A DNA stretch of 61,171 bases, the filler included. It is 6 parts of 6 records of this genome, joined end to end, with 100 filler letters (N's around TTAATTAATTAA, not from the genome) between each part and the next. Parts side by side here need not be neighbours in the genome. Positions count along the whole stretch, not along the records: positions 28,515 to 39,111 come from SRR2962707_4195; 5 more parts are not named here. One strand, written 5' to 3'. The notes below the pieces were generated by a model. That model was not told where the DNA came from, made no database searches, and saw only the letters and a program-made list of their open reading frames with translations. The translations under genes were made by a program, and so were the position numbers. Below, piece by piece: positions 7,453 to 39,211 of this stretch. The first letter of the stretch is position 1; every line of letters begins with the position of its first letter.

Positions 7453-7496
7453 TCTGTCTGTCTGTCTGTATGCATGCATGCATGCATGTATGTATG
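7453..7496. repeat. (TCTG)n/(ATGC)n/(ATGT)n simple repeats at contig start
   Basis: Seen directly. Confidence 0.85.
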
Positions 7497-7561
7497 AACG
7501 AATGTATATGTATGTGCGTGTGCAGGGTTTCCAGCACAGGTGCTACTAGCACCGGGCGGCG

Positions 7562-15080: not shown

Positions 15081-15233
15081 CTGAACCTGCCACGCGTGTC
15101 CAAAAGCAGTGCTCTGCGACTAACTTTACCAATAGATATCAATACGTGTGTATGTTGAAAGTGGAATTGTATTGCATGCCAAACGTTTGGGTCGGCGTGC
15201 AGTGCTTGATCATCTCGTCCAGTTTTAAAACCG

Positions 15234-16549: not shown

Positions 16550-16562
16550 GACGGACTTGAGT

Positions 16563-16611
16563 CGGTAGGTAGGTAGGTAGATAGGTGGTGGTAGTAGTAG
16601 TAGTAGTAGTA
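16563..16611. repeat. (GGTA)n/(GTA)n microsatellite at contig end
   Basis: Seen directly. Confidence 0.9.
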
Positions 16612-16711
16612 NNNNNNNNNNNNNNNNNNNNNNNNNNNNNNNNNNNNNNNNNNNNTTAATTAATTAANNNNNNNNNNNNNNNNNNNNNNNNNNNNNNNNN
16701 NNNNNNNNNNN
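16612..16711. other. Artificial contig-joining spacer
   Basis: N44-TTAATTAATTAA-N44. Confidence 0.98.
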
Positions 16712-21734: not shown

Positions 21735-21834
21735 NNNNNNNNNNNNNNNNNNNNNNNNNNNNNNNNNNNNNNNNNNNNTTAATTAATTAANNNNNNNNNN
21801 NNNNNNNNNNNNNNNNNNNNNNNNNNNNNNNNNN
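21735..21834. other. Artificial contig-joining spacer
   Basis: N44-TTAATTAATTAA-N44. Confidence 0.98.
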
Positions 21835-21850
21835 GTTTTATTCCCCAGAG

Positions 21851-21970
21851 CCTGTTCTGAGTATCTTGAAGGGCTTTGTGTCTAGATGAGTTGAATTATT
21901 TTCTTTTAAATACCTTGTAGGCTTGTCACGAGGTGGTTGATTAGGAGGTTTCAGTACGCTCAGCCTAACA
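21851..21970. repeat. Cluster of degenerate REP-like short palindromic elements
   Basis: cctgttctgagtatcttgaaggg (21851-21873); imperfect hairpin accttgt..acgaggt (21912-21934); on the minus strand, tgttaggctgagcgtactgaaacc (~21947-21970). The first and third resemble the TGTC..CTGAGC..TCGAAG pattern at 22603-22650. Confidence 0.45.
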
Positions 21971-22021
21971 TATAGTTTAACTAAAAATGGAACAAGAACA
22001 GCATAACCGCTAATAAAATAA

Positions 22022-22576
22022 ATGAAGATTACAGAAACGAAATTAAAAGGTTGTTTTATTATAGAACCTCGTCTTTTTCAAGATGAGAGGGGGTACTTTT
22101 TCGAGAGTTTTAATAAAAATCAATTTAACAAGGCTATTGGAGAAGAGGTTAACTTTGTGCAAGACAATCAGTCTTTATCAAAAAGAGGAGCGGTAAGAGC
22201 GCTACATTACCAAGTTGGTGTATACGCACAAGCAAAATTAGTACGAGTTTTACAAGGGAAAGTGCTCGATGTAGCGGTAGACATCCGTAAAGATTCAGCT
22301 ACTTTTGGGGAGCATGTTGTGTTAGAGCTTTCCGCAGAAAATAAAAAGCAATTATTTATTCCAAGAGGATTTGCACATGGTTTTGTAGCGCTAAGTGAAA
22401 CAGCAGAGTTTTTCTATAAATGTGACAATTTTTATAATAAGGAAGCTGAAGGAGGAATTATTTATAATGACAAGACCCTTAATATTGATTGGCAAATCCC
22501 AGATTCAGAAGTTGTCTTATCAGAAAAAGACAGACAATTGCCTAGTTTTAAAGAAGCTATTTTAAAGTTTGATTGA
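22022..22576 (+). CDS. rfbC: dTDP-4-dehydrorhamnose 3,5-epimerase
   Basis: DERGYFFESF, FVQDNQSLS, RALHYQ, QAKLVRV, DVAVDIR, GFAHGF, YKCDNFY motifs. Confidence 0.97.
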   Translation: MKITETKLKGCFIIEPRLFQDERGYFFESFNKNQFNKAIGEEVNFVQDNQSLSKRGAVRALHYQVGVYAQAKLVRVLQGKVLDVAVDIRKDSATFGEHVVLELSAENKKQLFIPRGFAHGFVALSETAEFFYKCDNFYNKEAEGGIIYNDKTLNIDWQIPDSEVVLSEKDRQLPSFKEAILKFD

Positions 22577-23430
22577 TGATGAGCGATTTAAAACCTGAAA
22601 TATGTCACTCTGAGCAAGCTTGTGTTGAGCAAGGTCGAAGCATCGAAGAGCAAAAAAAAGTAACTATATTAGTAACTGGAGCTAATGGTCAGTTAGGACT
22701 TACTATTCAGAAATACAAAAAGGAATATGAAAATGCAGTGTTTATTTTTTGTACTTCAGAAGAATTAAATATTACAAATGAGGCTTCAATAGCAGAAGTA
22801 TTTAAAAAACACCAACCAGATTATTGTATTAATTGTGCAGCTTATACCAATGTAGAAAAAGCAGAAGAGGAACCAGGAAAAGCTTTTTTGGTAAATGCCG
22901 AAGGGGTTAAAAAAATAGCAGTAGCATGTAAGGAGTATCAAACAACACTAATCCATATTTCTACAGATTATGTTTTTGATGGAGAGAAAGGTACACCATA
23001 TACAGTAACCGACAAACCAAATCCTATTAATGAATATGGGAAGTCAAAGTTAAAGGGAGAGCAATGCATTCAAGAGCTCTTGACAGCGTATTTTATTATT
23101 CGTACTTCATGGTTGTATAGTAAGGAGTTTGGAAAGAATTTTTATAAAACAATAGTAGAGAAAGCAAAGGAAGGACAAGAGATTCGTGTTGTAGATAACC
23201 AAATAGGTTGCCCTACAGATACCGTAAACCTTCATTATTTTATAAAAGAACTTGTAGAGGGGAAAAACACCCTTTATGGAATAAAACACTATTGTGATAC
23301 AGAAATATTGAGTTGGTTTGATTTTGCAAAAAAAATAGTGAAACAGAATGAAATTGAAGAGGTTGAAGTTGTGTGTGATAACTCATATATAACCAAAGCA
23401 AAGAGGCCAAAGTATAGTGTGCTTCTATAG
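22576..23430 (+). CDS. rfbD: dTDP-4-dehydrorhamnose reductase with an N-terminal extension
   Basis: ILVTGANGQLG, NCAAYTNVEKAE, HISTDYVFDG, YGKSKLKGE, RTSWLYS. The ATG overlaps the rfbC stop (TGATG). Confidence 0.95.
   Translation: MMSDLKPEICHSEQACVEQGRSIEEQKKVTILVTGANGQLGLTIQKYKKEYENAVFIFCTSEELNITNEASIAEVFKKHQPDYCINCAAYTNVEKAEEEPGKAFLVNAEGVKKIAVACKEYQTTLIHISTDYVFDGEKGTPYTVTDKPNPINEYGKSKLKGEQCIQELLTAYFIIRTSWLYSKEFGKNFYKTIVEKAKEGQEIRVVDNQIGCPTDTVNLHYFIKELVEGKNTLYGIKHYCDTEILSWFDFAKKIVKQNEIEEVEVVCDNSYITKAKRPKYSVLL
22603..22650 (+). repeat. Nested REP-like element inside the 5' coding region of rfbD
   Basis: tgtcactctgagc-[aagcttgtgttgagcaaggtcgaagca]-tcgaagag contains two TGAGC..TCGAAG units, one inside the other, and is 48 bp long (in frame). 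Confidence 0.55.
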
Positions 23431-23455
23431 GTTAGTGTATTAATTCTTAAAAGTC

Positions 23456-23485
23456 TTGGAGATAAAGCCGATTATTGTATTTTTG
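23456..23485 (+). promoter_or_regulatory. Bacteroidota primary-sigma promoter for wecB (-33 TTG, -7 TAnnTTTG)
   Basis: TTG at 23456-23458, a 19-nt spacer, then TATTTTTG at 23478-23485, 33 nt before the wecB ATG. Confidence 0.6.
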
Positions 23486-23518
23486 TGCAAAATGTAAAAG
23501 AAATCTTAAAGGAATTTA

Positions 23519-24655
23519 ATGAGAATTAAAAATTTGATTATTTTCGGAACTCGCCCTGAAGCTATTAAAATGGCTCCGCTTGTTAAAGAGTTTCGAAAAA
23601 GCGCTGATGTTTTTGATACTAAAGTGTGTATCACTGCCCAGCACAGAGAGATGTTAGATCAAGTCCTTGCTTTCTTTGAAATTGAACCAGATTTTGATTT
23701 GAATTTGATGAAGCCCAATCAAAATTTATACACACTTACATCAGACATTATAACAAACCTAAAACCTGTTTTAGAAGAGTTTACTCCAGATTATGTATAC
23801 GTGCACGGAGATACAACTACCACTATGGCATCTAGCATAGCTGCTTTTTATGCAGGAGCCAAAGTATGTCATGTAGAAGCAGGACTTCGTACGTTCGATA
23901 TGCAATCTCCATTCCCAGAAGAAATGAATAGATCTGTGACTGGAGTAGTTTCTAATTATCATTTTTCTCCTACTGAAACTTCAAAAGAAAATTTACTAAG
24001 AGAAAATAAGAAAGAAAACTCAATTTTAGTAACTGGAAATACGGTAATTGATGCACTACTATTCAGTGTGAATAAAATAAAATCATCAAGTTTTATTGAT
24101 GATGAGGTTGTAGAGTTACAAAAGTTAATAGATGATCATAAGAAAGTAATACTTGTAACTGGGCATAGAAGAGAAAATCATGGGCAAGGTTTTTTAAATA
24201 TATGTGCTGCTTTAAAGGAAATAGCAAAGAACCATCCTGAATCTCAGATAATATACCCTGTGCATTTAAATCCTAATGTTCAAAAGCCAGTGTATGATTT
24301 GTTGGCGGGGATAGATAATATTAAGTTAATAGCGCCTCTTTCGTATCCTGCATTTGTATGGTTAATGGAGAAGTCATACTTAATAATTACGGATAGTGGA
24401 GGAGTACAAGAAGAGGCACCAAGTTTAGGGAAACCTGTTTTGGTTATGCGAAATACGACGGAGCGCCCTGAAGCTGTAGAAGCCGGAACCGTTTTATTAG
24501 TTGGAACAGATCCAAAGAAAATAGTTGATGAAGCGAATTCGTTGTTAAATGATGATGATGCTTATAAGAAAATGAGTGCTTTACATAATCCTTATGGGGA
24601 TGGGAAAGCATGCGAAAGAATAGTTGATTTTATAAAAGGAATATCTAATGAATAA
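23519..24655 (+). CDS. wecB: UDP-N-acetylglucosamine 2-epimerase (non-hydrolysing)
   Basis: FGTRPEAIKMAP, HGDTTT, HVEAGLRT, PFPEEMNR, TDSGGVQEEAPSLGKP, NPYGDG. Confidence 0.97.
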   Translation: MRIKNLIIFGTRPEAIKMAPLVKEFRKSADVFDTKVCITAQHREMLDQVLAFFEIEPDFDLNLMKPNQNLYTLTSDIITNLKPVLEEFTPDYVYVHGDTTTTMASSIAAFYAGAKVCHVEAGLRTFDMQSPFPEEMNRSVTGVVSNYHFSPTETSKENLLRENKKENSILVTGNTVIDALLFSVNKIKSSSFIDDEVVELQKLIDDHKKVILVTGHRRENHGQGFLNICAALKEIAKNHPESQIIYPVHLNPNVQKPVYDLLAGIDNIKLIAPLSYPAFVWLMEKSYLIITDSGGVQEEAPSLGKPVLVMRNTTERPEAVEAGTVLLVGTDPKKIVDEANSLLNDDDAYKKMSALHNPYGDGKACERIVDFIKGISNE

Positions 24656-25859
24656 TCCAGAAGTAGTAATGGTAGGATTGGGCTATATAGGTCTGCCTAC
24701 CGCAGCTTTAATTGCTCAAAACAAAACATATGTACACGGAGTTGATGTTAATCCTAAAGTGGTGGAGACTATTAATGAAGGAAAAATACATATTATAGAG
24801 CCTGAATTGGATAAAGCGGTCGCAAATGCTGTTGAAAGGGGATATTTACGTGCTGATGTGAAACCAGTAGAAGCGGGTGCATATCTTATAGTGGTACCAA
24901 CCCCTTTTAAAGGGAAAAACGAACCAGACATTTCATTTGTAGAAGCAGCAACGAAAGCTGTTCTTCCTTTATTGAAAGAGGGGGATTTGTATATTATCGA
25001 GTCTACATCTCCTATCGGTACTACAGAAAAGATGATGCAATTGATTTTTTCTGAACGTCCTGAATTAGAGGGTAAACTATATATAGCTTATTGTCCTGAA
25101 CGAGTACTTCCTGGTAATGTAATGTACGAGTTAGTGCATAATGATAGAGTAATAGGAGGGGTGGATGATAAGTCTACTGAAAAAGCAGTTGCTTTTTATA
25201 GTCAGTTTATAAAAGGAGAATTACATAAAACCAATGCGCGTACAGCTGAGATGTGTAAATTGGTAGAAAACTCTTCAAGAGACGTTCAGATTGCTTTTGC
25301 TAACGAACTTTCATTAATCTGTGATAAAGCAGATATTAATGTTTGGGAACTGATAAATTTAGCTAATAAGCATCCTCGAGTAAATATATTACAGCCTGGT
25401 TGTGGTGTAGGTGGACACTGTATAGCGGTGGATCCTTATTTTATTGTAGCCGATTACCCAATGGAATCTCAGATTATAGGTAAGGCTCGTGAGATAAATA
25501 ATTACAAATCTTTTTGGTGTGCTGAGAAAGTACAAACCGCTAAGTTAGAATTTGAATTAAAACACGGAAGAAAGCCTAATATCGCCCTGATGGGCTTGGC
25601 GTTTAAGCCAAATATTGACGATTTAAGAGAGTCCCCTGCAAAATACATAGCTCAGAAAGTTTTGCAAAATGCAAATAATGAAGAGTACTATATTGTAGAG
25701 CCAAATATAACAGAACATAAAGTTTTTAAGCTTATTGGGTATAAAGAAGCGGTGGAGAAAGCAGATATTATAGTGTTTTTAGTGGCACATAATGAGTTTA
25801 AAGAATTGAAGATAGCTGAAGATAAGATGGTGTTAGACTTCTGCGGAATAAAGAAATAA
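24648..25859 (+). CDS. wecC: UDP-N-acetyl-D-mannosamine dehydrogenase
   Basis: GLGYIGLPTA, IESTSPIGTTE, YCPERVLPG, KLVENSSRDVQIAFANEL, GVGGHCIAVDP, FKPNIDDLRESP. Confidence 0.95.
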   Translation: MNNPEVVMVGLGYIGLPTAALIAQNKTYVHGVDVNPKVVETINEGKIHIIEPELDKAVANAVERGYLRADVKPVEAGAYLIVVPTPFKGKNEPDISFVEAATKAVLPLLKEGDLYIIESTSPIGTTEKMMQLIFSERPELEGKLYIAYCPERVLPGNVMYELVHNDRVIGGVDDKSTEKAVAFYSQFIKGELHKTNARTAEMCKLVENSSRDVQIAFANELSLICDKADINVWELINLANKHPRVNILQPGCGVGGHCIAVDPYFIVADYPMESQIIGKAREINNYKSFWCAEKVQTAKLEFELKHGRKPNIALMGLAFKPNIDDLRESPAKYIAQKVLQNANNEEYYIVEPNITEHKVFKLIGYKEAVEKADIIVFLVAHNEFKELKIAEDKMVLDFCGIKK

Positions 25860-25862
25860 TTT

Positions 25863-26648
25863 ATGATGAATGATGTTATAAAGGCTGCAATTGTAGCAGG
25901 TGAAAAAATTATTGAAATATATAATGAAGATATTCAGGTTAAGTATAAAAAGGATGATTCACCTTTAACAATTGCCGATAAAGCTTCAAATGACGTTATA
26001 CAATCATATTTAGAAAAAACTGATATCCCTATCATTAGTGAGGAAAATAAACAAATTGATTTTTCTGAAAGAAAAAATTGGGACAAATGTTGGATAGTGG
26101 ATCCATTGGATGGAACAAAGGAGTTTATTAAGAAAAATGGAGAGTTTACTGTTAATATAGCGCTGGTTGAAAACAGAATTCCTGTATATGGAGTAATTTA
26201 TGTGCCAGTTACTAAGGAATTATATGTTGGAGATGTAACTGTAAATAAAGCTTGGAAAATTAAAGTAGATAATAGTGAAGAGGATTTTTCTAATCTTTAT
26301 GTAGTGAATAACGAAATACAACCAACATTTAATAATAGTAAAGATTTAATCCGTGTGGTTGGAAGTCGTTCGCATATGAATGTTGATACAGAGAACTTTG
26401 TAGAAGATTTGAAAGCTAAATATAATAAGGTGCAAATTGTATCTAAAGGTAGTTCTTTAAAGTTTTGTTTGGTAGCAGAAGGAAAGGCAGATATCTATCC
26501 TCGTTTTGCCCCTACTATGGAGTGGGATACAGCAGCAGGACAAGCTATTTGTAACGCCGTGGGGTTTGAGGTTATAGATCAATCAACTCAAAAGCCGTTA
26601 GTCTACAATAGAGAAAATTTGTTAAATAATTATTTTTTGGTAAAATAA
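25863..26648 (+). CDS. cysQ: 3'(2'),5'-bisphosphate nucleotidase (PAP phosphatase)
   Basis: SPLTIAD, IISEE, WIVDPLDGTKEF, GSSLKFCLVAEG, PTMEWDTAAG. Confidence 0.95.
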   Translation: MMNDVIKAAIVAGEKIIEIYNEDIQVKYKKDDSPLTIADKASNDVIQSYLEKTDIPIISEENKQIDFSERKNWDKCWIVDPLDGTKEFIKKNGEFTVNIALVENRIPVYGVIYVPVTKELYVGDVTVNKAWKIKVDNSEEDFSNLYVVNNEIQPTFNNSKDLIRVVGSRSHMNVDTENFVEDLKAKYNKVQIVSKGSSLKFCLVAEGKADIYPRFAPTMEWDTAAGQAICNAVGFEVIDQSTQKPLVYNRENLLNNYFLVK

Positions 26649-26661
26649 GAATGCTACAGTA

Positions 26662-27087
26662 GTGGGAGTACAAAAACGACATATTGCGAAAACCATTACA
26701 TGGCGCCTTGTAGGGACTATAGATACAATTTTACTCTCGTGGTTAATTTCTGGAGATCCAACCACAGGTTTGAAGATTGGATTTGCAGAAGTTGTTACAA
26801 AAATGATTTTGTATTACTTTCATGAAAAAGCGTGGTATAACTTTAAAATAGAGAACAGTAATAAGCGTCATATAGTTAAAACGGTAACATGGCGTTTTGT
26901 AGGGACTATGGATACTATGCTTTTAGCATGGATAATCTCTGGAGATTCTATAGTAGGTTTGCAAATTGGTTTTACAGAGGTAATTACAAAAATGTTGTTA
27001 TATTACTTCCATGAACGTGTTTGGTACAGAGTTAACTACGGTTTGGATAAAAGGAATAGAGCAAAAAAATGGAGAAGAACATCATAA
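26662..27087 (+). CDS. DUF2061-family small membrane protein with two tandem domains
   Basis: KRHIxKTxTWRxVGTxDT..GxxIGFxEVxTKMxLYYFHE.W occurs twice; GTG start. Confidence 0.85.
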   Translation: MGVQKRHIAKTITWRLVGTIDTILLSWLISGDPTTGLKIGFAEVVTKMILYYFHEKAWYNFKIENSNKRHIVKTVTWRFVGTMDTMLLAWIISGDSIVGLQIGFTEVITKMLLYYFHERVWYRVNYGLDKRNRAKKWRRTS

Positions 27088-27668
27088 CGCATCAATATAA
27101 GTTAACAAGGAAAGAGCGTATAATTCGAAATAAACATAATTCCTTTTTGATTTTTTTTACAGGTCTGTCGGGGTCAGGAAAATCTACAATTGCGAATGCT
27201 CTAGAACAAAAACTTTATAATGAGGGTATAAATACCTATGTATTAGATGGTGATAATGTGCGAAAAGGGATTAATAAAGATCTTACTTTTGATCCTGAAG
27301 ATAGAAGCGAAAACATTAGAAGAATAGCGGAGATAGCAAATTTGATGATTGATGCAGGGCTCGTAGTTTTGGCAGCTTTTGTAGCACCCTACAAAAAAGA
27401 TAGGGAAATGGTAGAAAAAGTGGTGAATTCTGATAACTTTGTCGAAGTTTTTGTAAATACGGATATTTCTGTATGCGAAAGCCGAGATGTTAAAGGGTTA
27501 TATAAGAAGGCAAGAGCAGGAGAGATACCTAATATGACAGGGGTTGACGCTCCTTATGAAGCACCAGAAAGACCAGATGTAGAAGTTACGGATAACGATT
27601 CAATTGAAGAATCAGTAGAAAAAATATATAAAACAATCATTGACAAATTACAACTCAAAACAAAATGA
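27069..27668 (+). CDS. cysC: Adenylyl-sulfate (APS) kinase
   Basis: [49 protein letters not shown]. Confidence 0.97.
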   Translation: MEKNIITHQYKLTRKERIIRNKHNSFLIFFTGLSGSGKSTIANALEQKLYNEGINTYVLDGDNVRKGINKDLTFDPEDRSENIRRIAEIANLMIDAGLVVLAAFVAPYKKDREMVEKVVNSDNFVEVFVNTDISVCESRDVKGLYKKARAGEIPNMTGVDAPYEAPERPDVEVTDNDSIEESVEKIYKTIIDKLQLKTK

Positions 27669-28414
27669 GTAAGTACTATTTAAATTATTTAGACGAATTA
27701 GAGGCAGAAGCAATCTTTGTATTAAGAGAAGTGTGGGCACAGTTTGAAAACCCTGTGATTTTATTTTCAGGAGGTAAAGATTCTATTTTAGTAACGCACT
27801 TGGCAAAGAAAGCGTTTTATCCAGCTAAGATACCTTTCCCCTTAATGCACGTAGATACAGGCCATAATTTCCCTGAGACAATAAAGTTCAGAGATGATAT
27901 TATTAAAGACCTAGGTGCTCAACTTATTGTAGGTTCTGTACAAGAATCTATCGATCAAGGACGCGTTGCTGAAGAAAAAGGAAAGAGTGCCACTAGAAAT
28001 GCACTACAAATTACTACGTTGCTTGATGCAATTGAGGCTAATAAAATAGATTGTGCTATTGGTGGTGGGCGTCGTGATGAAGAGAAAGCTAGAGCAAAAG
28101 AACGTTTTTTCTCCCATCGAGATGATTTTGGACAATGGGATCCGAAAAACCAACGCCCAGAGTTATGGAATATTTTTAATGGAAAACATTTTGAAGGAGA
28201 GCATTTTAGAGCGTTTCCTATAAGTAACTGGACAGAAATGGATGTTTGGAATTATATTAAACGTGAAAATATAGCCATTCCATCACTTTATTTTGCACAT
28301 GAGCGAGAAGTAGTTTGGAGACAAGGTTCTTGGATTCCAAATTCAGAGTTTTTAACGTTGGAAGAAAATGAGGAGGTTGTTGTGAAGAAAATTCGTTTTA
28401 GAACTTTAGGAGAT
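27665..28414 (+). CDS. cysD: Sulfate adenylyltransferase subunit 2, 3'-truncated by the contig end
   Basis: LFSGGKDS, HVDTGHNFPE, GGGRRDEEKARAKERFFS, WDPKNQRPELW, RFRTLGD. Confidence 0.96.
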
Positions 28415-28514
28415 NNNNNNNNNNNNNNNNNNNNNNNNNNNNNNNNNNNNNNNNNNNNTTAATTAATTAANNNNNNNNNNNNNNNNNNNNNNNNNNNNNN
28501 NNNNNNNNNNNNNN
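28415..28514. other. Artificial contig-joining spacer
   Basis: N44-TTAATTAATTAA-N44. Confidence 0.98.
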
Positions 28515-31500
28515 AGCAGCAGCAGCAGCAGCAGCAGCGTCACCCAAAGAACCAGCCAACTATGTCTGCTGTGAGACCCAGCACCAGGTGCAGCAAGAGC
28601 CGGTTACGGCATTGAGAAATCTTCCTCCGACCATTGAGGTTGTAGAGCCGCCAGTTGCGTGCTCTCACCTCGGCGTTGTCCGGACTGCTTTCCAGCAAAG
28701 TCAACGTGCTGGGGAGCAGGTTGCAGGAGCCAGCCAGCACATGAGGGTGGTTGCGGTCGACTGGGCACCTGGCACGAATTGGCACGACGTGTGTTCCAAG
28801 CCCATTGCGCAGAACTTGCCGCTGCCTGCCCCAGATTTATCGTTCTGCGCGATTGACGAATTGATCACCTTGTACTCGAACTGGACTCTTTTGCAGCCCA
28901 ATGTCAAGCAACTCGGCACTCGCATCACAGTGAGGTCTCAGACATGGCTGCCAACTATGGTGCCCGGCATCGTTCCGTTTGCTGCGTGGGGGAAGCGGGG
29001 TCGTCCACTGCCCACAGATTTGTCCAGATTTGTGTTGCATCTGCCATGGGAGATTGACGGGTTCCCACTCAAATGGACAGCGGCGATCAACGCTTGCGTT
29101 GATGAGATTTGGGTTCCATCCGATTTTGTCAAGAAAGTGTTTGTTCGGGCTGGGATTCTCGCTCCTTCAGAGATATTTGTGTTGCCCCATGCCGTAGCAG
29201 GAACACCCAGTGCGCGTGTGCTGGACACGGCGCGCCAGCTCATGCTGAACAACGACACACTCGCAGCAATCATGGTTCATGAGGCATGGGGCATTCCCCC
29301 TTCACATGTACCGAGCAGTCAAAGTATCGGCTGTATGGATCACGACACTGCAGGCCAGGGAACTTTTGTTGACGCCTACACTGAACATTCAGCTGTTGCG
29401 ACCCGCAACTTTGTGTTCTTGTTTGTCGGGGGCCTTCTTCCGAGAAAGGGGGTTGACATTTTGCTCGATGCTGTTGAGCTCCTGCTTTTCGATCGGCAAG
29501 AATCTCATGAAGTTCCGCGAATCGAGTTGTGGGTGTATTGGTCATACTCGCCCATGGAGGGCAGAGGGGCTGAATATGCAATGTCAATGCGGTCGCGCGT
29601 GGCGTTGCTGCAAGAAAAGTGCAAGTCGCAAAAAGAAAACGGTCAACTTGTCATCAGGCTGCTGAACAGCACGGGAACTTCGTCAATGCCACCACGGGCA
29701 ATGGCAGCTCTCTTTGCCCGAGCTGATTGCTTAGTGCTGCCGTATCGTGCGGAGGGTTTTGCCTTGACTGTGTACGACGCTGCACTTGCGGGGACACCAT
29801 CGTTGTTGCCACATGCACCAGGACTACCAACAACAGAATGGTTGCCACGTGGCGCGTTCTTCAATGTTACAGCCAGGCGGGTTCCTTGCGCAGACTATTG
29901 GCCGTGCGATACAAAGCATGATGTTGCTGGAAACAGTAGCAACGCAATATTTCGCGAATCCTGGGGTGGGTCCACAGGACACCACGGGGCATATTGGCAT
30001 GGGGTCGCACCTGGCGATCTTGCTGCAGAAATGAACCGTAAGCATTCCGTTGTCCACGTGTGTCAGCAAACACTTTCAGTGTGCATCGTGAAGTATGTTT
30101 TGTTTAATTGCTTTGATAGGTGTCGCTTCTCTGCCGAAAAGTGAAGTGGGCGTGGTTGCTACGCTGGCCAGAACAAGCATAGAAGCGAATCTTCATCTTC
30201 GCAACATCACGGAACGATTGCGAGTTCATTTGCTCGCTGGCGAAGACAGCACATCACCAGGCCACAACTTCTCGCTCCCTCGTCGTTGGCGGCCCGAAAA
30301 CAGAAATATGTGCATGGGGTACGCTGGCATGTACTACCAGCTTCAAACTTATGCTCGCCCTGTTGATACCAGAGTTGGTATCATCTACAAGAACAATAGC
30401 AGCGGCTTGGAGAAGCAGGACTCCGTTGCGTATGCCCGTCACGGTGCCGTCAACGGGACTGACGCCCCTTCGCAGCAGGTCGAAACGGCTGTGCCTGTAC
30501 CCCACCAAGTCCCCAACGAACTTTTCGAAAACGTTTGGGCGTTTTCAGAATCTGGGGCCCTCTTTCGAAAGGTGGTCGACCTATTCAACACCATTGCTGC
30601 AAAGCTTGAACACGCCAGACACGACTTTTTGGCGCCCGAATTTGCTGGTCAAAGCGGACCTGTACCTGTCGCACTTTGCAGTTTTCCCAATTCAGGCACG
30701 TCTTGGACCTTGAATCTAGTTCGGCGCGCAACAGGAATATTTAAACACACAGTGTATGCAAAAGAATGTGCAAATGGCCAACATAGAAGTGAGAATCCGG
30801 TGCAATGTGAGTGGTTGACGGGTGTCTCTCTGCAAAACGTCCGTGGCACGCCGCGCATCGATGTGGTTGCGATCAACGAAACATTTGACCGAAATGGCCC
30901 AGGTCGATTCGCCGCACCACAAGAATCAGTCCTAATAAAGACCCACTTGTTCCATTATACTCGAGGCTCCGACGACTGGCAAGCTGATATGGTCGGACAA
31001 AGTGAATCGCCAGGTTCACTGGCCCATGCTCAAAAAGTGCAACAGTACCTCGCGCAGTTTGCTGGGGCTGTCCACCTCCTTCGCAACCCAATCGACAACA
31101 TTGTGTCTCGCGCCTTTCGCGCTCAAAAAGAGCAAATGAATGACAGATCCATGAGGAGTGCTGATTTTCACACAAGTGCCTTGCCAGTACTTTCGGACGC
31201 TCGCTTTCGTCAGGAGCTGGACCGGTGGGTTTCGTGGCATTTGTCAATTGCTAGGGCGATTTCATGTTGGCCACCCACACAAACTGCTTTTGGATATGTG
31301 CCTCTCCGATATCACATTGCCGTCTACAGTGACATTTTAGAGCACCCAGTGAACACGACTGTTGGTATTTTGCAGTTTCTCTCGCATGTGGCGCAGTACT
31401 CTACACGCAATTCGAATGAACAGTTGAACACCTTCGAACGCTTGCGGCGGAACTTCTCTTGGCAAGCAAAATACAAAGCCAAGCGCTGGAAAGTACCCGC

Positions 31501-33712
31501 CAATGATCATGCAAGGGCACGCAACGCTCCGAGCGACGGCGCTGGTCCCGATTGCCAGCAGTCGCCATCTTATGTCATTCCGATGTATCTAAAACATCTG
31601 ACGCCATGGCAAATAATGCATGTTGGGGAGCGCCTTCGCGAACTTGTACTCGTATTGCAGTCCCTCGTGAAAGACGAAACGCAACACTGCAGTGGTCCAG
31701 GCAGGTCGCCATTCTCTTGGAATTGGCGCTGGAACAGCAGCGCAGTTAGCATGCGCCAAACCCCTCAAAGTATGGCAACCTTCAAGTTTGAAATGTTCAC
31801 ACAGCTAGGTTTTGGGGTCGGTCCAAGCTTTAGTCATGCTGCGCAAAGTGTGCGGGCAGACCCGTGGTGGGGCGGGAAGCACATGATTGTCCATATCCCA
31901 AGCGCGTGCAACCCGGACGACGGCGATTGGCTGGCTGCCAAGCTTCAGCAACTCCTTGCGATTCTACAAAAAAAGTCAGGGAATCGATCTGTGCACATTT
32001 ACAACACACTTGATGGATCATTTTCGGATCGTAGTCGAACTACGTCATTGTCCCAATCGGCGCCTTGGCCACCTGCTGGGGCGCTAGCAAACTTTTCCCG
32101 CCGCAAAAGTGGTGGACGAGCAACGCATTTTATTGTGCTTTGCTGTGCGAAGGCTCCTCGCCGAGCGTTGTTGAAAAATATTGTACAGCACCCGGCTGTT
32201 AACGCTCCGCAGTGCGTCGAGCCACATTTTTTTGACAAGCTTTCATTGCTATTTGACTTAGAAAGGGAGAAAATCGATTTCTCACTTCTTCAAAGGGACA
32301 AAATGCTTGCAGATCGAGTGCACCAGCTGTACTTGGCTACGTTGACCGGGGTCCAAGAGGCCGGGGGTTCGCCATGGATTTGCAGAAGTGGTGGAAACCA
32401 ATCCATTGTCATTGGGGAAGCAACCACAAACTACGTGTTTTCCCCTGGGGCAGCAGCATTGGCGTTTAACACATTGCACCGTCAATTGCGCGCAAACGAA
32501 CCTGGATTTCAGGCTCGGCAACTCAAACTCCTGTCCATTGTGCAAGACCCCGCTTACGTTTTTGCTGCGAACTGGATTTTGCCATTTCAAAAGCATCGAA
32601 AAAAGCTACGTGACCGGCTGCGGCGCCAACACAGCCAACTCAACGCCTCCGAAAGCGTATCTGGCACACATGGTGATTCAGTCATACCGCCCGCAGTGCT
32701 AGCTTTTGAGCAGAAAATTCGGCGCCCATACTCTTGTGGGAGCGCTTTTCGCTTGCAAAAGTCCCAATTGCTTCGCTGCGTTGTGTCCCAGCTACATTTG
32801 CACAGTGAGCCAGGGACAGACGGCAACTTTGCCGAGCGCGCGAACAGACTGCTGGTGAAGCAGGGGTTGCGAGCTCCCGCAGTCGCTCAGTGCGTTGCAA
32901 CTGAGGTGTTTGCCGGGGGAGGAAATGAACTTGTAAGTGGCATTTTTCTTGCACCATTGCTGCAGTGGTTTCAAGCAGCCCTGGATCTTTCTTTGTTGGG
33001 AATAGTTCAAGAAAAAAAGCTAGAAGCCTGGCTATCGACGTTTCCAGAAGCACTGCGGCATCCAGCGAGCTACAGTGCTTCTGATGGCGCACGCCAAGAA
33101 CGAAAAGGCGCCCATCCAGGTAGCTTCGGCTCAGGCACATTGGCGCTACACGAACTGTTTTTTTTCCTTCAATCGCACGCGTTATTCCGAGCTGGCAAGT
33201 CACACCACTCACCAAATGAGACGTTCGGCTTGCAACGGCGTGACGATCCGACGAACTTGCAGTTGATGGCGGAGGTCTCTGAGTTTCTAGAACTTGACCC
33301 GTCCAAATTCACAGCCATGGAATGGTCGTCAGTCAATTACGATAGCCCACAACTGCCCCCCAATCTGTTTTTTCAGCAACGACGCGATGACGTTGATGTC
33401 ATTGAGGCTGTGCGCAGCTCGGCGGCAATACTTGATGAAGTTACTGCATTGTCTGGCAGGGTTTGTCCATGTGATCTTGCGTTGCGGATCGCGAGTGTGC
33501 TGTGATTCTGTTGTAGCATGTCACCTCAAAAGCATCTGTGCAGGCAAGTTTTCATTGCGTTGTGTATTTGATCGTGCCAGGTATTTAAAGCGTGCAACTT
33601 GGATGAGCTGCATGAGTTCTACCTGCCATTCAACAACCAATTACAAGAAGCCGTCGAGCTTGTTCACGGTGATGTTGTGGGGTTCATGGATCGCTACTGG
33701 AGTGACTGGTAA
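28515..33712 (+). CDS. 5'-partial three-exon gene, join(<28515..30037,30120..33460,33581..33712): GT4 glycosyltransferase + sulfotransferase + degenerate HS3ST-like sulfotransferase
   Basis: GT4: PWEIDGFP..VDEIWVPSDF..FLFVGGLLPRKGVDILL..ADCLVLPYRAEGFALTVYDA. Intron 30038-30119 (gtaagc..gatag) joins C|GT in frame. ST1: SFPNSGTSW, IKTH, LLRNPIDNIVS. ST2: EPHFFD, GEATTNY, VQDP. After intron 33461-33580 the last exon gives LHEFYLPFNNQL. Confidence 0.8.
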
Positions 33713-33841
33713 CTCCATGTTGACTGTGCCTTTTGAGTGCCTTTAGAATCCAGACGCACACAAAAATGCCTTGCCGGTACGAAAAGTCACATTTCCAAAA
33801 AATGCTTAATTGCGAGTTGATAAGTTAGTTAAAATTCCACA

Positions 33842-36800
33842 TCAAACCTCATCGGCATCGTCGTTCCCAAAAAGGCCTGATATCACGGACTCGACATGGT
33901 AACCAAACTTGCGCACGAGTGCTTTCACACGAACAGGGGTCACGTTTTCTAAACCCATTGCGTCGGTACTTTCCTTCACCTTGTCGTAGAAGGCCTTAGC
34001 CTGCTTTTCATTGGCGCGTCGTTGGTGTTCAGTTTGGTGTCGGTCCCAAGCGTGGCGGAACGCAGAGACATCGCCCGTGTTGGCCAGATCTGTGATCGGA
34101 CCAGGGCCCATGCCCAAATACACGCAAGCAATATGGACTTTATATCCAGACTGGTGGAGCAGCTCAAAGCAAGCAGCATCGGATAACTCATCGCAGGCAG
34201 CTCCTGCTTTGGACCGCAAGTCCACCATAAAATTGAGAAGCGCAACGGCTTCCTTAATTTTGCCTTCGAAGTCGGGCAATAACTCGGCACGCTGCAAAGC
34301 GGCAACATAACTATCATCCGATAGGCCTGGGCGTTCGTCGCGCAGGACGGTGAGCAGCTGTGTTGGTTCAGGCAAAGCAACAATCACAGCAGAAGTCCCT
34401 TTTACCCAGCTCTTGGGGAGCTTGTATCGAAAGTTGCCGCCGGTGAATGGGTTGACAAGCTCAATAAAGTCGCCCGGGCGCATGTCCGAAAACCCGTTTT
34501 TGACGCTGGGAAATACAACATTGACACATCCTTTGGGTGCAGGAGGGTGGGGTGGGGGCGGTCGTCGCTCCTCTGCTTCGCTGCCAGCAGCAGCCGAGGA
34601 CGCTACAACTTCGCCATCAACAACTTCGAGCTGGTCGTCTGCGTCGTGGAGAGGCGCTGCAATGCCCTGAACGACAACGTCATCCAGGTCATGTTCCCGA
34701 CGACGGCGGTGGCGGTCTTCCCGGACATGAAGCACCGCCAAAGCACTCTCATAGCTCCCCTGGGCTTCCATGAGCGCATCAAGACACTCTCGCTCGTCTG
34801 AGAAACCCAGATGCCGGAATCTATCCAACTTTTTGCGTGGTGTTGGGAAGTGCAGCACTAAATCCTTGCCTGGCCGCCAGTCTTTGGGCAGAGTTCTCAC
34901 CTGGAGGCCTTTACTGTACGGGTTGCGAACCACTAGCAGCTGACCGGGAACGAATCCCCGCGACGCAACAAGTGGGACGTGGAATATAGCTTCGGACAAA
35001 GGGACCCCAGACACAACTTTGCTCCCGACTGAGTCGGCGCCCGCGTCGGCATTTTCGAATAGGGTGTCAACGGCCACCTGGACATTGCCAACTGCATCAG
35101 CCAGCGCCTCCAAGCACACGCGTTCGTCATCAAACCCCATAGTCCGCAATTGCTCAAGTTGTTCAACTGGTTTAGGAACACGGATCAGATAGGTTTCGCC
35201 TGGCTTGGCATCGTCTGGCACTCGCAAGAAATCTCGAGTGAATGGGTTGGTGACCCTAAGTTGCGGGCTGATCAATGGATCGTACTCAGACGGAACTCGA
35301 TACGCCACTGCAAGGTGGTCTCGCGCGGCTAACAACCGCTGTTGAGCTTCACGCGCTAGGTCTTGCAGCTTTTTTAAACTTTCGCCAGAGTCTGGAGCCG
35401 TGGATGTGTCGGCGTCAAGTTTTGTGTCCACGTCATCGTCGTTTCCCACAATTGAGAGATCTTTGCCCTCGCTGGCTCTCCCGTTGGTATCGGCATCAGC
35501 TGCTTCACTCGGCACCTCCATCCCCGCACTCGCAATCAGTTTAAGCAATGCTTCTTCGGAGAGAATGCTGATGATATTACCAGCCGCCGCGGCAACATCG
35601 AACATTTCCTGAACAACATCGCGTGCTCGCTTCAGTAACTCGGCATCGTTAACACCCGCCGCCTCGGCCGCAGCGACCTTGGACTTGAGGGATTGCACCA
35701 TCGCGTCCGAAATCGGATCGATCGCGGCAGCAGCTACAGCGGCTTCGGCCTCATCTAGCTGCTTGGCAAGCTTCTCGCCGGCCTTCACGATCGCCAAAGC
35801 CCGGGCTTCTGCAGCCGCCTTCGCTGCGGCTGCGTCAGCTTCCTCTTTCGCACGCTGCAAAAGGAGGCGCCGAGCATCCCATGCAGCAGCTCGAACTGCC
35901 CGACCATCAGCGTCTTGTGATGGGGCTTCGAGACCAGCCTCGGCAATAATATTTCGCAGGTAAGTGTCTAATTGGCCTGCTGGCAATGCGCGATAAAACA
36001 GGAGGTAGGCGTTCGCGGTGCGCACTTCCTGTGGCTGCTTTTTGGCAATTCTTTCGTCATCGCAAAGAAACCACTCCGTGCCTCGCTTCGAGAAAGCAGT
36101 GTAGTGCCCCGAGCGAAGGTCTCCCATTTGGTTCGATACTCCGATTAGTTCATACAGCTGTTGGCCAGTCAGCCACGTGTCACGCGGGGAAAGGTCCCCG
36201 GGTGGCAATTCTGGAGAAGCTACATTGCTAGTTGTTGTTGCCGAGTCGGCGACATACTCGTCCATGAATATTTCGAATGGAAAGTCGATCAGTGTACCAA
36301 CCTTGCGCGTGACTCCCTCTAGTGTACACATGAATCGTTTGAAGTGGAAGCACAGTATCGGCGGCAGACGACATAGGTCAATCTTCTTCGTTGCAGAAAC
36401 ATCTGCTGCACAGTCATCGCAGTGCCACCGAATATCGGTCTCCGCCGACAAGAACCCCCGTAAGCAGCTGCTCAGCGTGTTGATAGTATTTGGCGCCTGT
36501 ACGGGCAGGTCATTTTTTTCAGACCCTCCACCGTCGCTGTTGCTGGTGCTGTTAGCCGCTTGCACAGCGTCTTGATCCGGAACAGAGAGCGGAATGGCTT
36601 TAAAAGCGTCGAACGTGCGTGAGGCTTGCTTCGGGTGCTTCGGACAAGACAAGCAGCTACTTAGCTGGCCTTCAAAAGTGTCCATGATCACCGATGCGTC
36701 ACGCTCGCGATGCTGGCGCCAGTGCATGTCTGCTGTCATGTTGGGTTCCTCCGCCGGGCCACTCGGAGCTCGACCATCGTTCGTAGCGCTTGAAGCTTCC

Positions 36801-38950
36801 TCTGGAACGCTGGCGCGCGTATTTATGTCTTGGTGAAGGAGGTCCAGTATGTTCTCAAGGACATCCATGGCATCATGTTGATGACCCATAGCGTGGTCGT
36901 GCTTGGCTCGAAAGTCGGGTCTAAATTGGTCCAACGTAGCCTTAAACCAGCCAAGTGGCCCAAGAGGTCGTCCAATTTTTGGTTTGTTCTCGTCACGGTC
37001 CAAATGACCCATGTGCTCAGTGCGCGCAATCTGGCACACCAGCGCGGAGAATGCCCGCGCCAAAATTCCTCCAGTGCCACCACGCTGGGCACGGCGGAAC
37101 GCTCGCCGTCTAAGGTCTTCGGTGTTTGGCCCGCGGGTGCGGTCTGCATTCGCGACGGGTGTAGTGCTGGTCTCATAGATCTGGGTGTTGAGCGAATCAC
37201 CACGAATGGCAACAGGATCGGCAAAAAAGCCTGTCACTGAGGGGCACGCCACAATGCACTGCAACACTGAGTTCATGTAGCAGGTGTTGCCAATGTTCGG
37301 CAGACCTACTACCTCTTCGATGAGGCGACGCCGCGTGTCGGCAACGTTCCCAGAGGTGAGGTCGACAGGTAACTTCGGCTGAAGCGTCCGGAGCTCACGA
37401 AAGCCGTACATGGGCTTCTGGTCGAGAGCTGTGTTTGAAATCAGCGAAAACCTGCGCTGAACGGGTTGCCACTCGTGGTCAGTTTCCGACACCGCTTCGC
37501 CCGGGGCGTCCCATGTGTTTCGAGCGAGTTGCACCAGTTTGAGCAATCTGGCCTCACGCGTATGTGGGTCAATGCTGGCAATGCGTCGCTTCTGCCAGCA
37601 GTGCTCCGGCGAATGGACGTACACACCCGGAAGAATTCCAGGCCACTCAATGTCGTCGAAGCTTCGGAAATTCACAAGATCAGGGTCAACGGTGACCTTG
37701 ATGGTTGGTGCGGAGTTTTCCGAGTCGCGCAATACCTCCACTTGCACCATCGACGAGTGTAGCCAAGGGTCGCTGTTCCACAACTCCCACACAGCGCCTT
37801 CTTCTTCAGGCAAAGCCCCGTCGGCTGGCTTGGGTACGGATGCGGGGGGGCAGTCCGTTTCCTCGCATTTGCCAGACCTTAAGTAGCCACGCACAGTGGT
37901 CGCGACCGTCTCCACGGCAGTCGCGCCATTCCATTCTCGTCGACTTAACCACCACCGGCCCGCGATGTCCCCACTCTTTGGAACGTAGTGCAGGATGGTA
38001 TCGTTTTCCTTGCAGTAGTAAAAGTTTCCACGGGAGTTCACGAGAATTTCGAAGTCCATACCCTCTCGAAGACGCGATCGCCAGTCGGCAACGTGTGTCC
38101 CTGCACGCACAAAGTCTCCGTGCTTCGGAGAAGTTCCAGCAAACTGCAGTCGGAGCCCTGCAGAGCGAGTAGTACGCATGTCTGAGCGGATATCACCGCG
38201 AAATCGTACGACCAAATCCTCACGATCACGACAGCATCGCACGACAGCCCCCTCTCGCCACTGATTACACCGTTCGTCAAACAAGTCCACTTCGTTGCCG
38301 GGCTCGAGTCGCAGCCGCCAATCGTCCAATGCACCGTATTCAGGCTCGTCCACAACGCTGCCTTCTCCCGCAAGCTCCGCATTGTGCAATGCCACCGGGG
38401 TTCGCTTTGCGGGGCTCTCCTCAGCGGGCCGAGCAGACTCAATTGGAACGCCGACTACAAGTGGCTCGCTGTCCTGGCCGTCATTTCCAGGATCGTCGTC
38501 CGCGGAAGGTCCGCCCTCCACTGGCGGTTCTCCAACCTCAACGAGAAGGCGCAGCGGCTCCTGGAACGTATCAATCGACCGCCCGTCGACCCTGAGCCCA
38601 CCAACAAGTCGTTCTTCTCCCTCGCTGGGGTCAAGGGCCTCCCACGAGCCGGTGGCTGAGCCAATCCACAGTCGAAGACCAGCCGCCACGGAGGGCACGC
38701 CCGGAAGCCGATCTCCGCCACTTGCAGGCGCGGGTGCCGGCAGGCCCGGGTGGCCCACAGACTCGCCCGGTGGTTCCTGAGGCAGGCGGTGCGACGGCTG
38801 CACAGCTTCAACAGCGCGGGTCGACAGTTTCGAAACGGGGTCACTCAGCTCGCAGGTCACGACTGCGTCGTGCACGGGGCGAGCGCTCGGCGGGGGCAAA
38901 GAACTCGCGGCTGCTGCTCCGTGCCCAATCCACAGCTCAAACGAGAGCAT
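33842..38950 (-). CDS. Ubiquitin-specific protease (peptidase C19) with Tudor-like N-terminal segments and C-terminal UBA-containing repeats; single exon
   Basis: Cys box GLPNIGNTCYMNSVLQC, QHDA, His box GHYTAF..WFLCDDE. UBA-like segments LRTMGFDDERVCLEAL..GNVQVAVDTL and FRHLGFSDERECLDAL..GSYESALAVL. Confidence 0.9.
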   Translation of the reverse strand: MLSFELWIGHGAAAASSLPPPSARPVHDAVVTCELSDPVSKLSTRAVEAVQPSHRLPQEPPGESVGHPGLPAPAPASGGDRLPGVPSVAAGLRLWIGSATGSWEALDPSEGEERLVGGLRVDGRSIDTFQEPLRLLVEVGEPPVEGGPSADDDPGNDGQDSEPLVVGVPIESARPAEESPAKRTPVALHNAELAGEGSVVDEPEYGALDDWRLRLEPGNEVDLFDERCNQWREGAVVRCCRDREDLVVRFRGDIRSDMRTTRSAGLRLQFAGTSPKHGDFVRAGTHVADWRSRLREGMDFEILVNSRGNFYYCKENDTILHYVPKSGDIAGRWWLSRREWNGATAVETVATTVRGYLRSGKCEETDCPPASVPKPADGALPEEEGAVWELWNSDPWLHSSMVQVEVLRDSENSAPTIKVTVDPDLVNFRSFDDIEWPGILPGVYVHSPEHCWQKRRIASIDPHTREARLLKLVQLARNTWDAPGEAVSETDHEWQPVQRRFSLISNTALDQKPMYGFRELRTLQPKLPVDLTSGNVADTRRRLIEEVVGLPNIGNTCYMNSVLQCIVACPSVTGFFADPVAIRGDSLNTQIYETSTTPVANADRTRGPNTEDLRRRAFRRAQRGGTGGILARAFSALVCQIARTEHMGHLDRDENKPKIGRPLGPLGWFKATLDQFRPDFRAKHDHAMGHQHDAMDVLENILDLLHQDINTRASVPEEASSATNDGRAPSGPAEEPNMTADMHWRQHRERDASVIMDTFEGQLSSCLSCPKHPKQASRTFDAFKAIPLSVPDQDAVQAANSTSNSDGGGSEKNDLPVQAPNTINTLSSCLRGFLSAETDIRWHCDDCAADVSATKKIDLCRLPPILCFHFKRFMCTLEGVTRKVGTLIDFPFEIFMDEYVADSATTTSNVASPELPPGDLSPRDTWLTGQQLYELIGVSNQMGDLRSGHYTAFSKRGTEWFLCDDERIAKKQPQEVRTANAYLLFYRALPAGQLDTYLRNIIAEAGLEAPSQDADGRAVRAAAWDARRLLLQRAKEEADAAAAKAAAEARALAIVKAGEKLAKQLDEAEAAVAAAAIDPISDAMVQSLKSKVAAAEAAGVNDAELLKRARDVVQEMFDVAAAAGNIISILSEEALLKLIASAGMEVPSEAADADTNGRASEGKDLSIVGNDDDVDTKLDADTSTAPDSGESLKKLQDLAREAQQRLLAARDHLAVAYRVPSEYDPLISPQLRVTNPFTRDFLRVPDDAKPGETYLIRVPKPVEQLEQLRTMGFDDERVCLEALADAVGNVQVAVDTLFENADAGADSVGSKVVSGVPLSEAIFHVPLVASRGFVPGQLLVVRNPYSKGLQVRTLPKDWRPGKDLVLHFPTPRKKLDRFRHLGFSDERECLDALMEAQGSYESALAVLHVREDRHRRRREHDLDDVVVQGIAAPLHDADDQLEVVDGEVVASSAAAGSEAEERRPPPPHPPAPKGCVNVVFPSVKNGFSDMRPGDFIELVNPFTGGNFRYKLPKSWVKGTSAVIVALPEPTQLLTVLRDERPGLSDDSYVAALQRAELLPDFEGKIKEAVALLNFMVDLRSKAGAACDELSDAACFELLHQSGYKVHIACVYLGMGPGPITDLANTGDVSAFRHAWDRHQTEHQRRANEKQAKAFYDKVKESTDAMGLENVTPVRVKALVRKFGYHVESVISGLFGNDDADEV

Positions 38951-39089
38951 GCTGGCCCACCGCCAGCGTCAGCCAGCTGCTGCCTCCGCAGGGATAGGAA
39001 TACACGCGCAAAAAAGCTAGCGAGCGCTCGGCTGGCGCCTTGTGTGTGGGCCAGGGCCAGGGCGGGCGAAGCAGCTACAACACAGCAGT

Positions 39090-39111
39090 AACAACAACAA
39101 CAACAACAACA
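39090..39111. repeat. (AAC)n microsatellite at contig end
   Basis: Seen directly. Confidence 0.9.
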
Positions 39112-39211
39112 NNNNNNNNNNNNNNNNNNNNNNNNNNNNNNNNNNNNNNNNNNNNTTAATTAATTAANNNNNNNNNNNNNNNNNNNNNNNNNNNNNNNNN
39201 NNNNNNNNNNN
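39112..39211. other. Artificial contig-joining spacer
   Basis: N44-TTAATTAATTAA-N44. Confidence 0.98.

Follow-up and report, generated by a model that had tools for sequence, protein, structure and literature searches.

A spliced gene of a marine unicellular eukaryote joins a GT4 glycosyltransferase to two sulfotransferase-fold domains in one chain

The window analysed here, a stretch of 61,171 nucleotides, is made up of six unrelated contigs placed end to end, the fifth of which (SRR2962707_4195, positions 28515–39111; 10,597 bp, GC 0.547) carries a gene that joins a glycosyltransferase family 4 (GT4) domain to two sulfotransferase-fold domains, termed ST1 and ST2. This contig is eukaryotic. 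On its plus strand, open reading frames (ORFs) run from 28471 to 30144 and from 30092 to 33505, followed by a short terminal ORF. A preliminary description of the locus proposed that two introns join these ORFs in frame into a protein of more than 1,600 residues, and joining the three exons by their coordinates (Table 1) gives 4,995 nt, that is, 1,664 codons and a TAA stop with zero internal stops. Either intron, if read through, contains an in-frame stop. Position 28515 is not the start of the gene: the contig edge falls there within an (AGC)n run and truncates the gene at its 5′ end.

Table 1. Features of the GT4-ST1-ST2 gene and its surroundings, numbered along the window
Feature	Position	Strand	Description
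Exon 1	28515–30037	+	GT4 domain; 5′ end cut in (AGC)n / poly-Ala run
GT4 subfamily signature LPWE...VDEIWVPS	29041–29121	+	P, W, E, W, C, V, D, W, V, P, S invariant in 4/4 family members
GT4 donor-binding motif GGLLPRKGVD, FLFVGGLLPRKGVDILL	29416–29466	+	R, K, G, D invariant in 15/15 rows of alignment A5
GT4 E-x7-E region AEGF, PYRAEGFALTVYDAALAG	29740–29793	+	AEGFALTVYD: second acid Asp; Glu in L003
Intron 1	30038–30119	+	82 nt, GTAAGC...ATAG, phase 1
Exon 2	30120–33460	+	GT4 end and linker, ST1, inter-domain stretch, most of ST2
Conserved linker block RRWRxEN.N.CMG..G.Y.Q	30281–30343	+	Upstream of and around first Met of exon 2; in frame in L001
ST1, SULT-like (PF00685-type) sulfotransferase	30569–31801	+	FPNSGTSW 30683–30706, IKTH 30935–30946, RNPIDNIVSR 31082–31111
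ST2 first part, HS3ST/NST-like fold	32123–33460	+	Loop CCAKAPRRALL within 32123–32173, EPHFFD 32219–32236, GEATTNY 32414–32434
ST2 degenerate 3′-phosphate site LLSIVQDPAYVFAANW	32528–32575	+	
Intron 2	33461–33580	+	120 nt, GTTTGT...CCAG, phase 0
Exon 3	33581–33712	+	ST2 C-terminal helix LHEFYLPFNNQL 33608–33643; stop TAA 33710–33712
Ubiquitin-specific protease with UBA, neighbour gene	33842–38968	-	UCH 4.2e-49, UBA 2.6e-7
Joint left of gene contig	28415–28514	.	GC 0.345 left (bacterial, unrelated), 0.547 right
Artificial joints with six-frame-stop linkers	7353–7452, 16612–16711, 21735–21834, 28415–28514, 39112–39211		N44-TTAATTAATTAA-N44

The introns were checked in public sequencing runs, four of which were listed, by comparing contigs of two of them, X1 and X2, with positions 28515–34400. 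X1, a DNA-type run, may be the source of this contig sequence; X2 derives from the same organism and from a different study and year. The share of sampled words was 0.99 for X1 and 0.95 for X2, the latter value fitting the loss of introns. A single X2 contig of 10,395 letters (10,597 − 82 − 120) omits exactly 30038–30119 and 33461–33580; its joints lie at 30037/30120 and 33460/33581, both omitted stretches are bounded by GT..AG (with the intron 2 cut moved by 1), and the 5,886 bases compared contain no other difference. The length of this contig implies that no further intron exists across the whole of it. The X1 contig, at 10,593 letters, retains both introns. A DNA molecule identical over 10.4 kb but missing just these two GT..AG stretches would be much less probable than cDNA, and we therefore read the X2 contig as processed transcript. 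Both introns are real and are removed in molecules of the same organism. The preliminary description had named transcripts ending near 30144 as the finding that would speak for two genes; X2 joins 30037 to 30120. Because the X2 contig extends into the convergent neighbouring gene, it represents overlapping coverage rather than one transcript. Separately, the X1 contig is one base short at 33012 and again at 33158 relative to the window and X2, which would put ST2 out of frame over 146 nt; these gaps are probably assembly or read errors. The run X3 held short, slightly divergent pieces only (share 0.06), from which no inference was drawn.

The missing 5′ end is supplied by a stored protein, P0083 (613 residues), which matches exon 1 with 100% identity and extends across intron 1 as far as the stop at 30144. 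It adds 71 N-terminal residues, comprising a short polar stretch and then a hydrophobic run ending in Ala-x-Ala that resembles a signal peptide; the preliminary description had looked to the 5′ end for a signal anchor. These 71 residues are encoded nowhere in the window, and a second overlapping copy of the gene region must exist in the assembly from which P0083 comes, because P0083 carries an N-terminus that the window lacks. Hydrophobic starts also occur in the relatives P0084 and P0085, and at the N-terminus of the related locus L003 a basic tail leads into a hydrophobic segment of 23 residues, as in a type II membrane anchor. Inside the spliced window protein no hydrophobic segment exceeds the threshold, and 18 N-x-S/T sequons are present. 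By these features the protein would enter the secretory pathway with its catalytic domains in the lumen.

Relatives of the gene were sought in metagenome contigs, where a scan gave 68 pattern matches and seven loci encoding relatives. One of them, L001, is a 16,695-bp seawater contig on which a GT4 ORF (7353–8777; identical to P0084 and 41% identical to exon 1) is followed on the same strand by an ORF with both sulfotransferase domains (8870–11731; containing P0003, 40%). At 8755 the GT4 ORF reaches a GTAAGT donor that shares phase 1 with intron 1 of the window, and an AG at 8873 would close a 119-nt intron; at the aligned position of intron 2 lies an 87-nt GT..AG intron followed by a matching last exon (..EDFYAIFNEQL..). 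A homologue of the neighbouring ubiquitin-specific protease occupies 11949–16693 on the minus strand, in the same convergent position as in the window. By its synteny and its gene structure, which is that of the window, L001 is an orthologue. Its downstream ORF has no Met upstream of the conserved linker block, so the block could not be translated without exon 1.

Two further loci, L003 and L002, represent a more distant relative. Their contigs, near-identical and each from a different data set, carry one uninterrupted ORF of 1,236 residues; it encodes a transmembrane anchor, GT4, ST1 and the N-terminal half of ST2, and no intron or stop separates GT4 from ST1. In Pfam searches the L003 ORF matched Glyco_trans_1_4 (2.4e-11) and Sulfotransfer_1 (6.3e-12). 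The remainder of its ST2 is found at 3860–4270 in two other frames, one of them with a canonical ..LQSEELFEHPVETAQRI.. stretch, in a layout shared by L002; the last exon of L003 ends ..THW, with either an exon structure or a frameshift after 3907.

The fusion was also weighed against a two-gene arrangement, in which a GT4 gene would end at 30144, a separate gene for both sulfotransferase domains would begin from a Met at about 30307–30313, and the 82-nt segment would be explained as an intron within an untranslated region or as an alternative event. Gene callers did report two proteins here, P0083 and P0001 (1,136 residues), and two relatives, P0002 and P0004, start at a Met-Gly that aligns with ..CMG.. 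in the window (Met65 of exon 2) and is readable as a separate start. The ends of called proteins nevertheless trace back to unrecognised introns: P0084 and P0085 stop 8 and 2 residues past the aligned donor site, in S-K and R-K, which is the translation of xGTAAG and marks them as intron-blind gene-calling artefacts, and P0002 and P0003 continue into a Val (GTN) codon at the intron 2 site, so that their ends too are caller artefacts. The Met starts of P0002 and P0004 are probably artefacts of the same kind. Against two genes stand also the X2 contig, which restores a single frame by lacking the 82-nt segment; L001, in which the linker ahead of that Met is conserved in frame and has no Met of its own; and the continuous GT4-to-ST1 frame of L003 and L002. 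As a rough calculation of our own, the chance that the joint is in phase (1/3) and that the 64 codons preceding the first Met of exon 2 are all free of stops ((61/64)^64, about 0.05) is about 0.015.

The fold of the GT4 module points the same way. An AlphaFold model of the L003 GT4 domain (predicted local distance difference test (pLDDT) 79, predicted template modelling score 0.81) places the site aligned with intron 1 within a helix (350–362) and shows two more confident helices beyond it (364–402), so that exon 1 alone would, in this model, stop within the GT-B fold. Several observations weigh against a single chain or leave it less secure. No run was listed as RNA, the library type of X2 is not on record, its 'RNA?' label being a guess, and contigs cannot reveal a single full-length transcript, intron retention or a protein; retention of intron 1 would yield a GT4-only product, and rare forms are missed by contigs. 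When the start of exon 2 was compared with GT4 C-terminal helices using hhalign, the match fell in the expected place and was not significant (E 0.098, probability 0.6%). A phmmer search with the junction region, which is uninformative, gave 0 of 115 alignments to non-family (bacterial) GT4 proteins that reach the junction, whether spliced or unspliced. Taking both sides together, we regard two adjacent genes as very unlikely: the gene and its introns are real, as is the arrangement of GT4-ST-ST in a single chain; the processed form of the gene is expressed, and the architecture is conserved and rare.

GT4 enzymes are characterized by an E-x7-E motif and an R/K-G donor-phosphate motif. Both places are recognizable in exon 1, as the preliminary description indicated, and the E-x7-D found there would be a conservative exchange of Asp for Glu. 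Exon 1 scored over the Pfam cut-offs for Glyco_trans_1_4 (1.2e-8, 35.8 bits; cut-off 27) and Glycos_transf_1 (1.3e-8, 35.0 bits; cut-off 26.4), and a GT4 family profile matched the solved GT4 structures 7qsg (MshA-type, 2.1e-18) and 3oy2 (6.6e-12). All listed Foldseek matches of the L003 GT4 model are GT-B enzymes, the best being the chlorovirus GT4 3oy2 (2.2e-13); this two-Rossmann GT-B fold was modelled on the relative L003.

The GT4 signature had been likened to a bacterial subfamily. The LPWE...VDEIWVPS signature also occurs in bacterial multidomain GT4s, and besides P0084 and P0085 the closest non-family relatives of exon 1 are bacterial-type GT4 proteins (22–30% identity, <=1e-24). Matches of exon 1 include a diatom transcriptome protein, P0081 (3e-6), and P0082, a protein of 1,562 residues with Sulfotransfer_1, GT2 and GT4 domains. 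A quick GT4 tree was built from a prokaryote-heavy database (108 rows, four long-branch rows removed, unrooted). Its Shimodaira–Hasegawa-like approximate likelihood-ratio support was 100 for the window with P0084 and P0085, 95 with L003 added and 85 with P0081 added; these five eukaryotic rows are nested with 17 metagenome proteins in a set of 22 rows (96). The tree fits a single origin of the fused GT4 and its placing in a bacterial-like subfamily. On the further proposal of a horizontally acquired GT4 the tree, being rootless and lacking eukaryote-rich sampling, is silent as to direction, and any directional claim was rejected.

ST1 resembles the cytosolic sulfotransferases (SULTs). The SFPNSGTSW and RNPIDNIVS motifs reported earlier are present, and the ST1 family profile, A3, matched SULT1A3 with 8.3e-9. 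Its 3′-phosphate site R...D...S and catalytic His are in place (RNPIDNIVSR, IKTH), with R, P, D, N and K..H invariant in A3, and the K[TS]H catalytic-His motif and RNP.DN..SR are retained in all four fused family members. The ST1 domains of the orthologue L001 (27.3 bits) and of L003 (45.9 bits) exceed the Sulfotransfer_1 cut-off of 22 bits. The loop for 3′-phosphoadenosine-5′-phosphosulfate (PAPS) has Asn in every one of the six A3 rows, and the pattern [FY]PNSGT[ST] recurs in 15 of the 17 proteins recovered by an exhaustive search with exon 2, single-domain and tandem-repeat ones included. The Asn loop is a trait of the clade. It is also found in four bacterial loci from metagenome-assembled genomes (MAGs), which were retrieved through a pattern that itself contains Asn; these four, the yield of a search of genome contigs, have ST1-type domains only and none is fused, one of them (L011) having a weak GT4 match 2 kb off on the other strand. 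Among viral contigs, 27 pattern matches included no relatives, and a full-text literature search did not find the Asn-loop motif. Three proteins, P0006, P0010 and P0011, contain two or three tandem copies of an Asn-loop sulfotransferase domain (SFPNSGTSY ... KTH ... RNPFDNI).

ST2 was recognized through profiles: phmmer with exon 2 alone returned no match in the PDB at E <= 10. A four-row ST2 profile, A2, aligned residue by residue with HS3ST1 (1zrh, 1.4e-7), and 9 of the 12 listed chains were HS3ST1/3/5 or a sulfotransferase (1.4e-7 to 3e-5); L003 ST2 alone matched HS3ST1 with 5.6e-9 and the NDST1 sulfotransferase domain with 3.4e-7. This agrees with the earlier assignment of the second domain to heparan 3-O-sulfotransferase-like proteins, whose EPHFFD, GEATTNY and LHEFYLPFNNQL blocks are all present. 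The loop Lys is kept (Arg in L001), and the window EPHFFD aligns with EVHFFD of HS3ST1, which contains the Glu catalytic base. The residues that we take to be essential in HS3ST1 beyond Lys, Ser and Glu are our own assumption. The ST2 variant motifs are well conserved among the window, L001 and P0002, which indicates that the domain is constrained, although probably not as a standard sulfotransferase.

On this evidence we put a probability of roughly 70% on the following reading: the locus is one three-exon gene of a marine unicellular eukaryote encoding a single lumenal GT4-ST1-ST2 protein of about 1,735 residues (1,664 in the window and 71 from P0083), with ST2 more likely of a non-standard kind. 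The chain would be ordered as a signal-peptide-like N-terminus, a retaining-type GT4 of GT-B fold, a linker, an ST1 of the Asn-loop clade, and ST2, with the catalytic part facing the lumen of the secretory pathway. There, GT4 would transfer a sugar from a nucleoside-diphosphate sugar onto a glycan or glycoconjugate, ST1 would sulfate the GT4 product using PAPS, and ST2 may bind or position the (sulfated) glycan or 3′-phosphoadenosine-5′-phosphate (PAP). For ST2 of the window lineage, binding or positioning is slightly favoured over action as a standard second sulfotransferase.

The sulfotransferase domains themselves supply further points that count against this reading. Window ST1 matches Sulfotransfer_1 with only 20.7 bits (2.9e-4), under the cut-off of 22, and its FPNSGTSW loop has Asn at the catalytic Lys/Arg position; PMC11625862 describes the catalytic Lys of the PAPS-binding loop, which in Stf0 is Arg, as highly conserved. 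ST2 was undetected by Pfam in scans of the window, L001 and L003, and its AlphaFold model from the four-row alignment is poor (pLDDT 38). Its loop reads K-A-P-R in the window for K-G-G-T, and its 3′-phosphate site has Gln for Arg and Ala for Ser (QDPAYVFAA for RDPSERVLS of HS3ST1). The catalytic Glu and the His of its block vary among the relatives: the Glu position is occupied by E in the window but by A in L001, by Q in P0002 and by D in L003 (blocks AAPNFF, QPHFFD and RDTQFF in the latter three). The preliminary description envisaged an assembly line that both glycosylates and sulfates. The chain of GT4 and two sulfotransferase-fold domains stands; that it contains two working sulfotransferases is doubtful, given the ST1 loop and the ST2 3′-phosphate site.

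Were both sulfotransferase domains active, the protein would add one sugar and place two different sulfates. The window ST2 retains the loop Lys, E-x-H-F-F-D, a Gly-Arg before exon 3 and the C-terminal helix motif, L003 ST2 keeps the canonical R...S 3′-phosphate site (LRNPSHHFVSKW), and the conservation of the variant motifs in the window, L001 and P0002 speaks for a domain under constraint. The same three sequences have lost the 3′-phosphate Ser and Arg, however, which PMC11625862 counts among defining features, naming Lys, Ser and Glu; in addition, a Pro lies within the ST2 PAPS loop and the Glu base is not retained in the orthologues. We consider two active sulfotransferases unlikely. At the other extreme, neither domain would transfer sulfate, leaving GT4 with two degenerate nucleotide- or glycan-binding modules, as the Asn at the catalytic position of ST1 and the missing 3′-phosphate site of ST2 could suggest. 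The Asn loop, however, is present in 15 of 17 matches, among them tandem-repeat and single-domain proteins that also keep KTH and RNP.DN..SR, a pattern that fits a working variant-loop clade and not decay, and we give this possibility very little weight.

The protein belongs to a rare family. HMMER searches with exon 2 among 1.84 billion representatives found 17 proteins at E <= 1e-3 and four at E <= 1e-30, the window's own included. A word-index search with exon 2 retrieved the window's own protein only (1 of 8,000 candidates scored), and the ESM Atlas gave generic sulfotransferase clusters only. A GT4-sulfotransferase fusion was not found in full-text literature searches, in which supplements were not covered. 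The suggestion that the architecture is undescribed holds within that literature, and only three non-self proteins reach E <= 1e-30. The nearest published case is a sulfotransferase-hydrolase fusion of a brown alga, proposed in PMC6418280 to act in sulfated-glycan synthesis. That protein is likewise a eukaryotic algal sulfotransferase fusion; by its description, which is the basis of the comparison, its partner is a hydrolase and it has one sulfotransferase.

Other known systems share individual parts of the architecture. Golgi-type deacetylase-sulfotransferases (NST/HS3ST type) also couple glycan-modifying and sulfotransferase domains in one chain; in the window protein, GT4 takes the place of the deacetylase as partner, the sulfotransferase-fold domains number two, and the source is a protist rather than an animal. 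For ST2, HS3ST1/3/5 (PDB 1zrh, 1vkj, 1t8t, 3bd9) are the best solved relatives and have in common with it the loop Lys, E-x-H-F-F-D and the C-terminal helix motif, whereas ST2 is about 500 residues long with long inserts, has APR for GGT and replaces the 3′-phosphate Arg and Ser by Gln and Ala. For ST1, the best solved relatives are cytosolic SULTs (SULT1A3 1cjm, SULT1C2, SULT1A1), which share K-T-H and RNP.D..VS; they differ in the loop (YPKSGTTW, compared with FPNSGTSW), and ST1 follows a signal peptide within a multidomain chain. The bacterial multidomain glycosyltransferases represented by P0082 share the GT4 signature and likewise unite sulfotransferase and glycosyltransferases, but with the sulfotransferase N-terminal and of the HRSGTS-loop type, an extra GT2, no introns and a GT4 identity of 25–30%. 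Among solved structures, chlorovirus B736L (3oy2) and a mycobacterial GT4 mannosyltransferase (7qsg) come nearest to the GT4 module in fold and sequence; these are single-domain proteins of 15% identity, whose substrates give no reliable hint to the donor or acceptor used here.

Sulfated polysaccharides of marine microorganisms store carbon and shape particle formation, and little is known of the enzymes responsible for their synthesis in protists and algae; fucan synthases are called 'still unknown' in PMC11468063, and PMC11625862 notes non-canonical polysaccharide sulfotransferases missed by Pfam. A single expressed gene linking glycosyltransferase and sulfotransferase domains is a testable candidate that fixes which activities act together. 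It also presents two sequence variants of biochemical interest, the Asn-loop ST1 clade and an HS3ST-like ST2 without the 3′-phosphate site. The family is rare, and its value is limited for now. A bolder proposal, which we hold only tentatively and think doubtful as a whole, is that the protein represents the first eukaryotic lumenal 'make-and-sulfate' module, a single chain that would both elongate an extracellular glycan and sulfate it, in which the Asn-loop clade, as yet undescribed and working with Asn in place of the loop Lys/Arg, sulfates and the altered HS3ST-like domain reads or holds the sulfated product. If true, an HS3ST/NST-type fold would have been recruited outside animals, giving a direct genetic handle on sulfated polysaccharide synthesis in marine protists.

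The surroundings of the gene require care because of how the window was assembled. Its six contigs range in GC from 0.345 to 0.612 and are separated by five identical joints; as bacterial (34% and 61% GC) and eukaryotic contigs are mixed, neighbourhood across the joints is meaningless. A 4.4-Mb bacterial genome, G001, had no match to the GT4-ST1-ST2 gene. The bacterial sulfate-activation genes upstream (21835–28414) lie on a separate contig and stand near the sulfotransferase gene because of the concatenation only. This bacterial contig (GC 0.345, 34%), which adjoins the joint on the left, encodes RmlD, a UDP-N-acetylglucosamine 2-epimerase, a UDP-sugar dehydrogenase, an inositol-monophosphatase-family (CysQ-like) protein, a tandem DUF2061 membrane protein, an adenosine 5′-phosphosulfate (APS) kinase and a PAPS-reductase-family (CysD-like) protein, the sugar-nucleotide genes being followed directly by the CysQ-like phosphatase, DUF2061, APS kinase and CysD. 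These genes may form a bacterial cluster for precursors of sulfated polysaccharide, which the end of the contig interrupts. Among the remaining contigs are bacterial ones, with a GspD secretin, and eukaryotic ones, with a C2 domain.

On the gene's own contig, the ubiquitin-specific protease gene is intron-free, encodes at least 1,708 residues and is open to the contig end, with about 130 bp between the two convergent stops. It lies outside the enzyme and serves as a synteny marker.

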